IMG/VR virus record: IMGVR_UViG_2541047966_000003
Reading direction: 5' to 3' (one strand)
Source of the DNA: a virus
Taxonomy: Duplodnaviria; Heunggongvirae; Uroviricota; Caudoviricetes
DNA: 5,526 bases
Notes under the pieces: generated by a model
Told to the model about the DNA's origin: nothing
The model's database searches: none
Seen by the model: the letters and a program-made list of their open reading frames with translations, nothing else
Position numbers and translations under genes: made by a program
In this document: positions 1-5,526 of the stretch, one piece after another
How the letters are laid out: the number at the start of each line of letters is the position of its first letter
Numbering within the stretch: the first letter of the stretch is position 1

Positions 1-1
1 T

Positions 2-169
2 GCCACAGGCCCGAATCCCTTCATGATTAACAAAGCTTCTGCGCCAAAAGTTGATGGTGAGATCAAGGTCTCTTTTGTGAATTCGCCTCCGGGTATGCGG
101 GTTATGGAAACGCGATCCAGCGGTTTTGATGTCAGCCATGATGTTGGCTATACGCGCTTTGGCAGGTAA
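2..169 (+). CDS. 3' end of upstream tail gene (5'-truncated by window edge); probably tape-measure protein C-terminus
   Basis: Frame 2 is open from the window edge for 56 codons (…SFVNSPPGMRVMETRSSGFDVSHDVGYTRFGR*) and ends in tandem in-frame stops TAA(167-169) TGA(170-172). Position directly upstream of an N-like gene matches the Mu order (tape measure, then N). No start codon is visible, so the ORF track omits it. Product identity is by synteny only. Confidence 0.5.
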   Translation, partial: ATGPNPFMINKASAPKVDGEIKVSFVNSPPGMRVMETRSSGFDVSHDVGYTRFGR

Positions 170-190
170 TGAAAAATTAATCTGTTAATG

Positions 191-229: not shown

Positions 230-1558
230 ATGACGTGGAAAGACAGACTTCAGGACGCGTCATTTCGCGGTGTGCCGTTTAAGGTTGAAGAAGAAAGTGC
301 GGGAACCGGTCGTCGTGTGGAAACGCACGAATACCCGAACCGCGACAAACCCTATACCGAAGACCTGGGGAAAATCACTTTCCGCCCGTCCATCACAGCT
401 TATGTGGTGGGAGATGACTGCTTTGACCAGCGCGATCGCCTGATTGACGCGCTGAATAAACCCGGTCCTGGCACGCTTGTCCATCCGACTTACGGTGAGC
501 TGAAAGTCTGTGTTGACGGGGAAGTTCGGGTCAGCACATCGAAGAGTGAAGGGCGTATTGTCCGCTTTGACCTGAAGTTTGTCGAAGCGGGAGAACTCTC
601 TTACCCCACTTCAGGTGCGGCGACGGCGCAGACGCTGATGTCATCCTGTTCTGCACTGGATGACTGCATCAGTGATAGCTTCAGTGGTTTCAGTATCGAT
701 GGCGTGGCAGATTTTGTGCAGAACGACGTCGTCGGTAATGCCAGCACAATGCTTGGGTATGTTTCTGATGCGATGAAAGTGGTGGATTCTGCCGTATCGG
801 ATGCCGCCAGGCTGTTGCAGGGGGATATCTCGGTACTTCTGCCGCCGCCATCGTCAGGCAAAAATTTCGTTGAGCAGGTGCAGAAAATGTGGCGTACCGG
901 GAAACGCCTTTATGGTAACGCCAGCGACCTGGTCACCATGATCAAAACGCTTTCCGGTGTCAGCCTCGGCAGCGATCTGCAACCGCGCGGCGTCTGGAAA
1001 ACGGACAGTAAAACCACCGCCACGGCGACGCAGCAGCGTAACGTGGTTGCCAGCACCCTTCGTACGACCGCAATCAGCGAAGCGGCGTATGCCGTCACAC
1101 GATTGCCTGCGCCCACAACTTCCGCGGTGATGCAGAATTCCGCAGTGGGGCAGGCAACAACACCCGCGCAGAGCACCGGCTGGCCTTCTGTCACGCATCC
1201 GGCACTGAACAATGCACCGGCGGTGAAAAACACGGTTGACCTGCCAACGTGGGAAGAACTGACCGACATTCGCGACACACTGAATACGGCAATTGATAAG
1301 GAGTTGTCCCGTACAACCAGTGATGCGCTGTTTCTGGCGCTGCGCCGGGTGAAAGCAGATCTGAATGCGGATATCAACACGCGCCTTGAACAGTCTGCAC
1401 GGATCATTCAGCGCACGCCGGATGAGGTTTTACCCGCGCTGGTGCTGGCGGCGACCTGGTTTGATAACGCGGCGCGTGACGCGGACATTATCCGGCGTAA
1501 TGCCATTACGCATCCCGGCTTTGTGCCGGTGATCCCTCTGAAGGTGCCAGTGCAATGA
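230..1558 (+). CDS. DNA circulation protein N-like tail protein (Mu gp43/N family)
   Basis: Long ORF (track: 188..1558). ATG at 230 has GGAG at 221-224 with a 5-nt spacer; ATGs at 188 and 215 lack an SD. The resulting N-terminus MTWKDRLQDASFRGVPF matches my recollection of this family's N-terminus. Size (~442 aa) and position upstream of a P-like hub gene match Mu. Start is uncertain (188/215/230); stop is firm. Confidence 0.8.
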   Translation: MTWKDRLQDASFRGVPFKVEEESAGTGRRVETHEYPNRDKPYTEDLGKITFRPSITAYVVGDDCFDQRDRLIDALNKPGPGTLVHPTYGELKVCVDGEVRVSTSKSEGRIVRFDLKFVEAGELSYPTSGAATAQTLMSSCSALDDCISDSFSGFSIDGVADFVQNDVVGNASTMLGYVSDAMKVVDSAVSDAARLLQGDISVLLPPPSSGKNFVEQVQKMWRTGKRLYGNASDLVTMIKTLSGVSLGSDLQPRGVWKTDSKTTATATQQRNVVASTLRTTAISEAAYAVTRLPAPTTSAVMQNSAVGQATTPAQSTGWPSVTHPALNNAPAVKNTVDLPTWEELTDIRDTLNTAIDKELSRTTSDALFLALRRVKADLNADINTRLEQSARIIQRTPDEVLPALVLAATWFDNAARDADIIRRNAITHPGFVPVIPLKVPVQ

Positions 1559-2634
1559 ACGACAATGTCACGCTACGGGTAAATGGCCGGGAGTGGAATG
1601 GCTGGACATCGGTGCGCATCGGTGCCGGTATTGAACGGCTGACGCGGGATTTCAGTGTGGAGATCACTCGCCAGTGGCCGGGAGATGAGGGTATCACCAC
1701 GCTTCAGCCGCGCATTAAAAACGGTTCAAAAGTGGAGGTGCTGATTGGTGATGAGCTGGTGATCACCGGCTGGGTGGAGGCGACGCCCGTTCGTTACGAT
1801 GCCCGTTCGGTCAGCACCGGTATTGCCGGACGCAGTCTGACCGCTGACCTGATTGATTGTGCAGCTGAACCGACACAGTTTAACGGACGCTCGCTGGTGC
1901 AGATTGCGCAGGCGCTTGCTGCGCCTTTCGGCATTGAGGTGGTGAACAGCGGTGCGCCGTCGGGTGTTATTCCTGATGTCCAGCCTGATCACGGTGAAAC
2001 GGTGATTGAGGTAATCAACAAAATACTCGGTCAGCAGCAGGCGCTGGCTTACGACGACCCGCACGGCAGGCTGGTGATTGGCGGTATTGGCTCAACGCGG
2101 GCACATACCGCGCTGGTACTTGGGGAAAACATCCTTTCCTGTGATACGGAGAAGAGTATCCGGGAGCGGTTTTCTGTTTACCAGGTGGCGGGGCAGCGTG
2201 CCGGAAACGACGATGATTTCGGTGAGGCCACCACCACCGCGCTGCGGGCCCGCACAGAGGACGCATTTATTGCCCGTTACCGTCCGATGTATATCAGGCA
2301 GACAGGGCAGGCCACGGGGGCAGGCTGTATTGCGCGTGCTGACTTTGAAGCCCGACAACGGGCGGCGCGGACGGATGAAACCACCTATGTGGTGCAGGGC
2401 TGGCGACAGGGTAACGGTACGCTGTGGCAGCCCAACCAGCGGGTGATTGTCTTCGATCCGGTCTGTGGTTTCGACAATACCGAACTGCTTGTCTCGGAAG
2501 TCACGTTTACTCAGGACCAGAACGGCACCCTGACGGAAATCCGTGTCGGCCCACCTGATGCTTATCTGCCTGAACCCGAAGCCCCCGGCGCGCGGAAAAA
2601 GAAAAAAGCCAGAGTACAGGAGGACCCGTTCTGA
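1555..2634 (+). CDS. Baseplate hub protein (Mu gp44/P-like)
   Basis: 359-aa ORF whose ATG(1555-1557) overlaps the upstream TGA(1556-1558) as ATGA. N-terminus MNDNVTLRVNGREWNGWTSVRIGAGIERLTRDF resembles Mu P-like tail proteins. Size and position match Mu gene P (379 aa in Mu). Lys-rich C-terminus (ARKKKKARVQEDPF). Confidence 0.85.
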   Translation: MNDNVTLRVNGREWNGWTSVRIGAGIERLTRDFSVEITRQWPGDEGITTLQPRIKNGSKVEVLIGDELVITGWVEATPVRYDARSVSTGIAGRSLTADLIDCAAEPTQFNGRSLVQIAQALAAPFGIEVVNSGAPSGVIPDVQPDHGETVIEVINKILGQQQALAYDDPHGRLVIGGIGSTRAHTALVLGENILSCDTEKSIRERFSVYQVAGQRAGNDDDFGEATTTALRARTEDAFIARYRPMYIRQTGQATGAGCIARADFEARQRAARTDETTYVVQGWRQGNGTLWQPNQRVIVFDPVCGFDNTELLVSEVTFTQDQNGTLTEIRVGPPDAYLPEPEAPGARKKKKARVQEDPF

Positions 2635-3182
2635 TGAGGACGATTGAAGCCATGCAGCGACAACTTCTCGGCCTGATTGGGCGGGCCGTGGTGAAAAGCA
2701 TCAGTGCCGCCACGAAATGTCAGACCGTGGATGTGTCCCTGATTGCCGGTGAACCCAAAGCCGGGGTTGAACATCTTGAACCCTACGGTTTTACCGCAAG
2801 GGCAAACAGCGGTGCGGAAGCGGTGGTGTTGTTTCCGGATGGCGACCGTTCTCATGCGGTGGTTGTTACGGTGTCGGACCGGCGCTACCGCCTGAAAGGG
2901 CTGCAGACGGGGGAGGTGGCTGTCTATGACGATCAGGGGCAGTCCGTGACGCTGACCCGGGAGGGGATCGTGGTGGACGGTGCAGGTAAAACGATCACGT
3001 TTCGCAATGCGCCCAGAGCACGTTTTGAAATGGACCTGGAAGTGACCGGACAGGTGAAAGACCTGTGCGACTCCGGCGGCACCACCATGTCAGCGATGCG
3101 GCTTGCCTATAACGGGCATCGTCACAGAGAGAACGGTCAGGGCAGTAACACCGACAAACCTGATAAAGCGATGGAGGCATGA
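2634..3182 (+). CDS. Baseplate central spike / puncturing device (Mu gp45-like, P2 gpV-like)
   Basis: 182-aa ORF; ATG(2634-2636) shares one base with the upstream TGA(2632-2634); AGGAGG at 2618-2623. Size and position match Mu gp45 (197 aa in Mu). C-terminal HxH motif (…YNGHRHRENG…, His codons 3117-3119 and 3123-3125) as in spike apex metal sites. Confidence 0.85.
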   Translation: MRTIEAMQRQLLGLIGRAVVKSISAATKCQTVDVSLIAGEPKAGVEHLEPYGFTARANSGAEAVVLFPDGDRSHAVVVTVSDRRYRLKGLQTGEVAVYDDQGQSVTLTREGIVVDGAGKTITFRNAPRARFEMDLEVTGQVKDLCDSGGTTMSAMRLAYNGHRHRENGQGSNTDKPDKAMEA

Positions 3183-3607
3183 TGGAACTGTGGCTGACGG
3201 TGAACGGTAAACGCACCTGCGCCAGCGCACAGCTGGATCCGCTGACCCGCGCCGTGGTGATTTCCCTGTTTACCTGGCGGCGGGCGGAGCCTGATGACAA
3301 CGCCGACGTCCCGATGGGATGGTGGGGGGATACCTGGCCTGCGGTACAGAATGACCGTTACGGCTCCCGACTGTGGCTGCTTCAGCGCAGCAAACTGACC
3401 AATCAGCTGGTGCAGACGGTAAGGGGGTATATCCGCGAATGCCTGCAATGGATGACTGATGACGGCGTGGTGTCCCGTATTGATCTGGATATCCGCCGCA
3501 CCGGGATTAATGAACTGGGTAACAGTATCACTCTCTGGCGTCGTGACGGACCGGTAATGATTTCTTTTGATGATCTGTGGAGTGCGATAACGCATGGCGG
3601 ACAGTGA
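3182..3607 (+). CDS. Baseplate wedge protein, Mu gp46-like (T4 gp25 / P2 gpW-like family)
   Basis: ORF in track starts at 3179 (MMELW…). GGAGG at 3173-3177 sits 1 nt from ATG 3179 but 4 nt from ATG 3182, so 3182 is preferred (MELWLTVNGKR…). About 141 aa, same size as Mu gp46 (142 aa). Overlaps the upstream stop TGA(3180-3182). Confidence 0.82.
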   Translation: MELWLTVNGKRTCASAQLDPLTRAVVISLFTWRRAEPDDNADVPMGWWGDTWPAVQNDRYGSRLWLLQRSKLTNQLVQTVRGYIRECLQWMTDDGVVSRIDLDIRRTGINELGNSITLWRRDGPVMISFDDLWSAITHGGQ

Positions 3608-4652
3608 ATTTCAGCGCCCGACGCTGGCAGAAAATATCAGTATGCTCCGTAACGATTTATTCGCCAGGCTGGACGTCTGCGACACGCTCCGGCGCATGGA
3701 TGAAGACGTACGGGCAAAGGTGTATGCGGCGGCGCTGCATACGGTTTACGGTTACATCGATTATCTGGCAATGAACATGCTGCCTGACCTGTGCGATGAG
3801 TCCTGGCTGGCGCGACATGCTGCGATGAAACGGTGTCCGCGCAAGGGAGCCACGGCTGCCAGCGGGTATATGCGCTGGGAAGGTGTCAGCGATGGCCTGA
3901 AGGTGACCGCCGGGAGTGTTATTCAGCGCGATGACCTGGTGCAGTACACGACAACTGACGATGCAACCAGCTCCGGTGGTGTCCTGCGCGTGCCGATCGC
4001 CTGCTCAAGTGCAGGTGCGGTCGGTAACGCTGACGACGGTACGGCATTAATCCTGGTCACGCCGGTGAATGGTCTGCCGTCTTCCGGTGTGGCTGACACC
4101 CTTACAGGCGGATTTGATACTGAAGAGCTGGAAACGTGGCGCGCCCGCGTCATTGAGCGGTATTACTGGACGCCTCAGGGCGGGGCTGACGGGGACTATG
4201 TTGTCTGGGCTAAAGAAGTGCCCGGCATTACCCGCGCATGGGCATACCGTCACTGGATGGGAACGGGGACTGTCGGTGTGATGATTGCCAGCAGTGACCT
4301 GATTAATCCCATTCCGGAAGAATCAACGGAAACGGCGGCAAGACAACATATCGGGCCACTGGCCCCGGTGGCAGGCTCTGATTTGTATGTGTTCAGGCCG
4401 GTGGCGCATACGGTGGATTTTCATATCCGTGTGACGCCGGATACACCGGAAATACGGGCTGCCATCACCGCGGAGTTGCGTTCGTTCCTGCTGCGTGATG
4501 GTTATCCGCAGGGAGAACTGAAGGTGTCGCGTATCAGTGAAGCGATTTCCGGTGCGAACGGGGAATACAGCCATCAGTTGCTTGCACCGGCGGAAAATAT
4601 CTCCATTGCAAAAAATGAACTGGCGGTTCTGGGGACGATTTCATGGACGTGA
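3594..4652 (+). CDS. Baseplate J-like protein (Mu gp47-like; P2 gpJ / T4 gp6-like wedge)
   Basis: 352-aa ORF. ATG 3594 lies 14 nt inside the 3' end of the previous gene; GGAG at 3579-3582. Size matches Mu gp47 (361 aa in Mu) and position follows the gp46-like gene. Confidence 0.88.
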
Positions 4653-5227
4653 CAAACGATGATTACATCCGTCTGTTGTCGGCACTGCTGCCGCCCGGTC
4701 CGGCGTGGTCAGCCAGCGATCCGGCGATTGCCGGTGCGGCACAGTCATTAACCCGCGTTCATCAGCGTGCGGATGCCCTGATGCGGGAGCTGGATCCGCG
4801 CACCACTACTGAACTGATAAACCGCTGGGAGCGTCTGTGCGGCCTGCCGGATGAATGTATTCCGGCGGGAACGCAGACCCTTCGCCAGCGTCAGCAACGG
4901 CTGGATGCGAAGGTTAACCTGGCGGGCGGCATCAACGAGAATTTTTATCTTGCACAGCTTGCTGCCCTGGGCAGACCAGACGCTACCATCACGCGATACG
5001 ACAAAAGCACGTTCACCTGCTCATCGGCCTGTACTGACGCGGTGAATGCGCCGGAATGGCGGTATTACTGGCAGGTCAACATGCCAGCTGCCACCAACAC
5101 CACCTGGATGACATGTGGCGATCCCTGTGCTTCCGCACTGCGTATCTGGGGCGACACCGTTGTCGAGTGCGTGCTTAACAAACTCTGCCCTTCGCATACC
5201 TACGTAATTTTTAAATATCCGGAGTAA
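4643..5227 (+). CDS. Phage tail/baseplate protein, YmfQ-like (Mu gp48-like)
   Basis: 194-aa ORF. ATG 4643 overlaps the upstream 3' end by 10 nt; GGGGA at 4631-4635. Same length as E. coli e14 YmfQ as I recall it (194 aa); position between the J-like gene and the tail fibre matches Mu gp48. Cys-rich C-terminal half. Confidence 0.82.
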
Positions 5228-5230
5228 TCC

Positions 5231-5526
5231 ATGCATCGTATAGACACGAAAACCGCGCAGAAGGATAAGTTCGGCGCGGGTAAGAACGGTTTTACCCGTG
5301 GTAACCCCCAGACCGGCACTCCTGCCACCGATCTGGATGATGACTACTTTGACATGTTGCAGGAAGAACTCTGCAGCGTGGTGGAGGCATCCGGTGCCAG
5401 CCTGGAGAAGGGGCGGCATGACCAGCTGCTTACCGCGCTTCGTGCGCTGCTGTTAAGCCGCAAGAATCCGTTTGGTGATATCAAATCGGACGGCACAGTA
5501 CCAACGGCTCTCGAAAACCTTGGTTT
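5231..5526 (+). CDS. Tail fibre protein, N-terminal constant region (3'-truncated by window edge)
   Basis: GGAG(5221-5224) with 6-nt spacer to ATG 5231, 3 nt after the upstream TAA(5225-5227). Open to the window end (98 codons): [47 protein letters not shown]…TALENLG. The …[12 protein letters not shown]… motif is the type I recall in the baseplate-attachment N-terminus of Mu S / e14 Stf-type fibres. Confidence 0.85.
5508..5526. other. Partial serine-invertase crossover site (gix/hix/pix-like left half-site plus core), truncated by window end
   Basis: CTCTCGAAAACC-TT-GGTTT (5508-5526) compared with recalled 26-bp sites hixL (reverse complement TTATCAAAAACC-TT-GGTTTTCAAGAA) and Mu gixL (reverse complement TTATCCAAAACC-TC-GGTTTACAGGAA). 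The inner AAAACC-NN-GGTTT matches perfectly; the half-site matches 9/12. It lies inside the tail-fibre ORF, where such sites occur in Mu, P1 and e14. Confidence 0.4.

Follow-up and report, generated by a model that had tools for sequence, protein, structure and literature searches.

A tail-fibre gene that stops, in the assembly, at a probable e14-type DNA-inversion site

Some phage genes end where the sequencing ends, and it is not always obvious why the sequencing should have ended there. The DNA analysed here, a stretch of 5,526 nucleotides that we call the window, stops inside a tail-fibre gene: the reading frame opens at an ATG at position 5231 on the + strand and remains open to the last base, 98 codons later, and the final 19 nucleotides (5508–5526, CTCTCGAAAACCTTGGTTT) have the look of a partial recombination site for a DNA invertase. 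An earlier note on this sequence had read them in that way and had proposed that the element carries a fibre-switching system whose variable parts lie just beyond the window. Is the gene interrupted at a fibre switch, and could that switch still operate? A half-site alone could be a relic, or a coding motif kept for its peptide (ENLGLGEG), and it is the content of the scaffold downstream that settles the identity of the switch.

The window is identical at 5526/5526 bases to positions 5359–10884 of one locus, L005, from scaffold KE702541.1 of assembly GCA_000461635.1; L005 was among nine loci retrieved with the exact YmfQ protein as query. In KE702541.1, runs of N lie on both sides of this stretch, so the window is one whole contig of the scaffold, and its 3′ end is an assembly break rather than a biological one. 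Upstream of the fibre gene, six co-oriented genes make up a Mu-like baseplate module (230..5227, + strand) that encodes a DNA circulation protein, the gpP/gp44 hub, gp45, gp46, gp47/baseplate J and gp48/YmfQ. This assignment follows the Pfam families of the L005 genes (DNA_circ_N, GpP-like, Mu_Gp45, GP46, Baseplate_J and Mu_Gp48/YmfQ) and the way in which SfV, e14 and E. coli prophages are annotated. At one end of the prophage, an integrase gene adjoins dusA-pspG. With this neighbourhood, and with all close matches coming from E. coli or Shigella, the chromosome would be of the E. coli type, and the host element appears to be an SfV/e14-like myovirus prophage inserted beside dusA. At the 5′ contig end, directly after the N run, window positions 1–170 (L005 5359–5527) hold roughly the last 55 codons of a tape-measure gene, whose counterpart in locus L004 has a PhageMin_Tail domain. 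Compared with E. coli LR-50 and BY63, the window diverges upstream of about position 200.

The site itself is divided by the contig end. Its outer 12-bp half (5508..5519, + strand) is CTCTCGAAAACC, which matches the outer half of the e14 left site base for base and has the TnnTCnnAAACC layout in common with the half-sites of Mu gix. The central crossover dinucleotide, TT, follows at 5520..5521 (+ strand); the partner site described below has AA on the + strand, the same dinucleotide inverted. The first five nucleotides of the inner half-site, GGTTT, occupy 5522..5526 (+ strand), and the contig end cuts off the remaining seven, GGGAGAA or TGGAGAA. Of the full form, CTCTCGAAAACC-TT-GGTTT(G/T)GGAGAA, 19 of 26 nucleotides are therefore inside the window. 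Because the inner half and the facing cassette of the source genome fall in the assembly gap, we take the rest from relatives that are 99.4–99.9% identical in the window region, in which the left site reads CTCTCGAAAACC-TT-GGTTTGGGAGAA or ends in GGTTTTGGAGAA instead. Both endings fit the right half-site that the earlier note had predicted, TTTNNNNGAA.

Within the fibre reading frame the left site covers codons 93–98 and the central TT falls in codon 97 (CTT, Leu), in line with a predicted crossover about 97 codons into the gene. The interval first flagged was wider (5490–5526); its last 19 nucleotides hold up as site sequence, and 5490–5507 turn out to be ordinary coding sequence. AAACCNNGGTTT occurs once in the window against 0.01 occurrences expected from 200 shuffles, and TCNNAAACCNNGGTTT once against 0.02 expected from shuffles, which excludes a chance match; the motif is real. 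The terminal 19 nucleotides show no difference from the left site of the E. coli K-12 e14 P segment and fit the 12+2+12 layout of Mu gix, as the earlier note's assignment to the DNA-invertase sites would have it. We consider it very likely that this is the left 26-bp site of an e14-type P segment, with 5508–5526 supplying its outer half, its core and the first five nucleotides of its inner half.

Past the window, KE702541.1 continues with about 305 N and then with the 3′ part of a tail-fibre assembly (tfa) gene of the 200-aa type on the + strand. Next come a 142-aa tail-fibre assembly gene and a silent fibre C-terminal cassette, both on the − strand; the cassette extends 99 codons from the site and has a Gp53-like_C domain. 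The inverted partner, or right, site, TTCTCCAAAACC-AA-CGTTTATGAAAA, lies at L005 12312–12337 in the source scaffold. In reverse complement, right sites read TTTTCATAAACG-TT-GGTTTTGGAGAA, or GGTTTGGGAGAA in the last position. Two inverted 26-bp sites, each with imperfect 12-bp half-sites around an identical 2-bp core, are thus present, and between them are two opposed Caudo_TAP tail-fibre assembly genes and the silent, opposed fibre cassette. The core-to-core distance from left to right site is 1806 bp in L004 and in a second relative, L006. Opposed fibre segments with tfa genes, bounded by a second inverted site 1–3 kb away, are what the earlier note had said should be sought. A scan for promoters and terminators within the segment yielded no more of them than shuffled sequence would lead one to expect.

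The part of the fibre that lies within the window (5231..5526, + strand) corresponds to its constant N-terminal part, Sc, codons 1–98, and is a homologue of e14 stfP/ycfK. Its 98 residues match e14 StfP at 97/98 positions, and the e14-like constant part of about 100 aa named in the earlier note is borne out; the constant part in Mu is about 170 codons long. Two near-identical prophages illustrate how the gene goes on. In L004, 99.7% identical to the window, the gene in the expressed orientation goes on to encode a fibre of 265 aa with a Collar domain, and in L006, 99.4% identical, one of 194 aa with a Gp53-like_C domain. Both fusions are open and in frame, as ...ALENLGLGEGS... and ...ALENLGFGEGA.... 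Each cassette comes with its own assembly gene, Collar with the 200-aa tfa and Gp53-like with the 142-aa tfa, and the Collar-type cassette is homologous to e14 stfE′. The exchange of the fibre C-terminus that had been proposed for this element is visible among its close relatives.

L004 and L006 share both cassettes, but with the orientation reversed between the two loci. More widely, prophages 98–99.9% identical to the source have the 1.8-kb segment in both orientations, with breakpoints at the site cores (L004/L006, L005/L006 and the E. coli genomes EC974/EC1515). Single-base markers in the sites narrow down the exchange. The inner half-sites differ by one base, GGTTTG versus GGTTTT, in a reciprocal manner: L004 has G on the left and T on the right, and L006 the reverse. 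The outer half-sites differ at the base beside the core, C versus G. As the outer C/G marker stays in place and the inner G/T marker travels with the segment, the exchange lies within the 7 bp TTGGTTT, which include the central TT. The source scaffold joins this series, since past its gap KE702541.1 corresponds to L006 with the segment inverted, 1141 nt matching at 99.9% in reverse and the following 1392 nt at 99.86% collinearly.

The same holds for EC974 and EC1515, complete genomes of two urinary isolates that belong to one Taiwanese series and are likely to be closely related. Their flanks are 99.96–99.98% identical, the 1.8-kb segment between them is inverted with the same marker swap, and pinE is intact in both. 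When junction queries were compared with complete genomes, both junction types occurred, in 172 and 23 genomes at ≥80% coverage, numbers that are confounded by cassette diversity and give qualitative support only. In EC1515 (L019 4001–4449), which is in the inverted state, the fibre is annotated as a truncated stfP pseudogene; relative to the query, this region is 1 nt short, a difference that may reflect an indel of the assembly and not biology.

By analogy with Hin and Gin, a Pin-family serine invertase would bind the left site and its inverted partner about 1.8 kb downstream and cut both at the central TT, after which one pair of subunits would rotate and the ends would be religated, inverting the segment. 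A crossover in codon 97 would join the constant 98-aa N-terminus in frame to either the Collar or the Gp53-like receptor-binding C-terminus, and the same inversion would bring the matching tail-fibre assembly chaperone gene into the expressed orientation downstream. In this way the phage would exchange one fibre type for another and, presumably, alter its host range. This catalytic scheme, and a dependence on Fis, would carry over from the biochemistry of Hin, Gin and Pin. The enhancer is about 65 bp long, with two Fis sites, and is located about 100 bp from a hix site (PMC3798978). Its expected place in a system of the e14 type is in cis, within the 5′ portion of the invertase gene. Over their first 210 nt, the source pin and the functional e14 pinE have 2 differences by eye. 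Fis sites follow the loose consensus G-N2-Y-N7-R-N2-C, with paired sites 48 bp apart; when the initial 300 nt of each of three genes (pin, pinE and gin) were scanned for it, no pairs with the 48-bp spacing appeared, Mu gin included, so the scan is powerless.

Tail-fibre inversion by e14/Pin has been known since the 1980s, and what we describe is a further copy of the e14/Pin P-segment inversion system, with nothing new in its design. The site identity, the 98-aa constant part, the gene order and the homology of the Collar cassette to stfE′ make the locus, judged by its sequence, a member of the e14/Pin branch of the Fis-dependent DNA-invertase family, not of the Mu/Gin branch. The left site of e14 in K-12 agrees with the window in every base of its outer half, its core and the 5 nt that follow, and the right sites of the two systems have the same outer half (left site CTCTCGAAAACC-TT-GGTTTGGGAGAA; right site, in reverse complement, TTTTCATAAACG-TT-GGTTTGGGAGAA). 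The order of the e14 P region, ymfQ, stfP, tfaP, tfaE(−), stfE′(−) and pinE, is that found here: ymfQ, fibre, tfa(+), tfa(−), silent fibre cassette(−) and pin(+). The e14 segment measures 1827 bp from core to core, against 1806 bp here, and the two Pin proteins are about 84% identical. The systems differ by the one base (G/T) in the inner half-site, by a second cassette (Gp53-like, 96 aa past the site) that departs in sequence from the C-terminus of e14 StfP, by a frameshift in pin here, and by the gene that follows pin, which encodes a DUF4145 protein here and is mcrA in e14. Unlike e14, a remnant at icd, the module here sits by dusA in an apparently complete SfV-like prophage with tail, baseplate and integrase genes. 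For e14, inverted repeats TTGGTTTGGGAGAAGG and CCTTCTCCCAAACCAA have been described that flank a 1797-bp P segment, whose inversion is brought about by PinE and also, in trans, by PinQ (PMC12529663, 2025), and both of its orientations coexist in MG1655 cultures, by sequencing and PCR (PMC4272514, 2014).

The Mu G segment is built along the same lines. It, too, has 12-bp half-sites around a 2-bp core within a fibre gene (S), alternative cassettes (Sv/U and Sv′/U′) and an invertase gene just outside the right site, and its upstream baseplate genes (gp43–gp48) are homologous to those here. However, Mu gix reads TTATCCAAAACC-TC-GGTTTACAGGAA, with a TC core in place of TT; its half-sites (TTATCCAAAACC and TTCCTGTAAACC) are unlike those of our locus, its constant part has about 170 codons instead of 98, and its segment spans about 3 kb instead of 1.8 kb. 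Neither a gix with a TC core nor a constant S part of about 170 codons is found at this locus. The Hin/hix H segment of Salmonella and the Cin/cix C segment of P1 belong to the same family of Fis- and enhancer-dependent serine invertases, and Gin, Cin, Pin and Hin cross-complement. Hin flips a promoter, whereas the segment here swaps the 3′ end of a gene. Systems of this family have two 26-bp sites, which the title of Johnson and Simon 1985, as cited in PMC2724282, mentions. The deposited genome of Escherichia phage SKA5 also contains the module described here, annotated there with a "DNA invertase". The value of the locus as a discovery is accordingly small; in the source strain, flipping may continue despite the broken invertase.

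The earlier note had predicted a serine recombinase gene of about 190 codons next to the segment. A pin-type gene does follow directly (L005 12392–12975, + strand; Pfam Resolvase), beginning with MLIGYVRVSTNDQNTDLQRNAL 55 nt after the right site, which is about 1.5 kb past the window end as deposited and about 1.9 kb when the gap is sized from L004; the source copy, however, is frameshifted. A deletion of 1 nt at nt 375, where one G is lost relative to the allele of locus L015 (GGGCGGGC becoming GGGCGGC), reduces the product to 142 aa with the Resolvase domain only, and the helix-turn-helix region can be read in another frame. L004 and L006 have the same lesion. The intact allele, from E. coli QA-1986 630 (L015), encodes 185 aa with a Resolvase domain (4e-51) and an HTH_7 domain (2e-11). 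Small serine recombinases of the invertase subfamily have a Resolvase catalytic domain with the VRVST serine and a C-terminal HTH_7, and the gene belongs with them; the source copy has no intact frame. Once repaired, the source protein shares 83.8% identity with PinE and 70.5% with Gin.

Among the 30 complete-genome pin matches listed, 18 show no length difference, 17 of these over the full 584 nt, and the other 12 are 585 nt long. An alignment over all 584 nt implies that those 17 carry a deletion of this type, and a length of 585 nt is like that of the intact allele; at least 17 complete E. coli genomes therefore have a frameshifted pin allele. In strain ECZP248 (L016), a pin gene 99.0% identical to that of the source is called frameshifted by NCBI PGAP. 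In L004, the recombinase gene (12752–13310) has 5′ 210 nt that are, by eye, nearly those of Mu gin and a 3′ part that is the frameshifted pin-type allele of L005 and L006. It looks like a gin/pin chimera produced by recombination between prophage invertase genes.

How far can the site sequence be trusted as the mark of a switch? It might be that AAAACCTTGGTTT is kept only for the fibre peptide ...ALENLGLGEG..., with no inversion system attached, as in Shigella phage SfV. Across the whole window SfV is 97.4% identical in nucleotide sequence, and its fibre gene orf21 (also of SfI, SfII and SfIV) contains the 26 bp unchanged, CTCTCGAAAACC-TT-GGTTTGGGAGAA. Yet its fibre is fixed, followed by one tfa gene and then by the gtr O-antigen genes, and its 37-kb genome contains just one such site, lacks a partner and has no PinE homologue by tblastn. 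A half-site alone therefore proves no switch; the sequence can persist without one, and the partner site and the invertase gene have to be found. At the source locus they are: the same scaffold contains, downstream, a second site in inverted orientation, the silent cassette, the two tfa genes and pin, and near-identical prophages are inverted exactly at these sites. We rejected a motif-only reading for the source locus on this downstream content, and regard it as very improbable.

Far more credible, if in our judgement still somewhat short of an even chance, is that the locus is a genuine homologue of the e14 switch that has died in the source genome. The fibre would then be fixed in one orientation, and the contig would have broken because the Collar-type cassette and the 5′ part of its tfa are repeated in other prophages of the same genome. 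The frameshifted Pin without HTH_7 fits such a history, and so does the assembly: the right-hand site of KE702541.1 was assembled through without a break, and the gap, which starts at the left site, ends midway through the 200-aa tfa gene. Matches to the Collar-type cassette occur in 2886/5426 E. coli genomes, at up to 10 places per genome, and contigs of the L008 type end 98 nt beyond the site instead of at the site itself. Against a dead switch, the window stops exactly at GGTTT, whose final T is the last base that both orientation states have in common; the next base is G or T. Among contigs from other assemblies that end near the site, Logan contig L010, from another sample, ends at the same base, L011 ends 6 nt later and L012 8 nt earlier. 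An assembly graph halts at such a base if the reads continue in two ways. The stop at the last common base fits orientation heterogeneity in the sequenced culture, and it fits a second prophage copy with another cassette equally well. The comparison of L005 with L006 also speaks against a fixed fibre: they share one frameshift allele (2 mismatches in 1392 nt), yet have the segment in opposite orientation. In complete genomes with a frameshifted pin, either cassette type can adjoin pin. Nor does a broken resident gene need to fix the segment, given that e14 is inverted in trans by PinQ (PMC12529663) and that pin-like genes are common in E. coli, at up to 5 places per genome.

Since the pin product lacks the DNA-binding domain, any inversion in the source genome would need an invertase acting in trans. 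For the presence of both orientations despite the frameshift, inversion in trans by another Pin-family enzyme would be the simplest reading; alternatively, the frameshifted 3′ half of the gene may have spread by homologous recombination, as its junction with a gin-like 5′ half in L004 illustrates. More tentatively still, and as something that we think rather unlikely, the segment could be an orphan switch, kept in motion by Pin-family invertases that other prophages supply in trans. The idea comes from the frameshifted alleles in at least 17 complete genomes, the lesion joined to a gin-like 5′ half in L004, and the two orientations among carriers. If it were true, phase variation of the fibre (Stf) would be governed by the whole prophage set of the cell and not by the phage itself, and it could serve the host, as in the block of T2 adsorption by PinQ/StfE2 that has been reported for e14. 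A pseudogene invertase beside a segment seen in both orientations offers a small, testable case of such trans-control among prophages. Of the fibre-switching system first proposed for this element, then, the sites, cassettes, tfa genes and natural inversion have been borne out, and the element's own pin has proved frameshifted; in the source strain the switch may continue to operate.

For annotation, a fibre gene "ending" at ...AAAACCTTGGTTT is an assembly artefact of the switch or of a repeat and not a truncated gene, and contigs of such prophages tend to break at the crossover site. In some E. coli genomes, fibre genes are interrupted near the site in other ways. In locus L003 (7916–7945), the fibre gene is cut off just past the crossover site, with divergence after GGTTTGGGAGA and an IS1 nearby, and in L016 (1263–1571), stfP is annotated without its C-terminus. 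To judge by these two loci, deletions or rearrangements appear to favour the crossover site.

The slot that follows pin has a varied cargo (L005, L013, L021, L001 and L018). In the source it is the DUF4145 gene (L005 12975–13670, − strand), for whose protein PADLOC returned no match. The same slot is occupied by mcrA in e14 and in phage 689R6; in strain LR-50 it has an autotransporter gene, and in EC974 small hypothetical genes.
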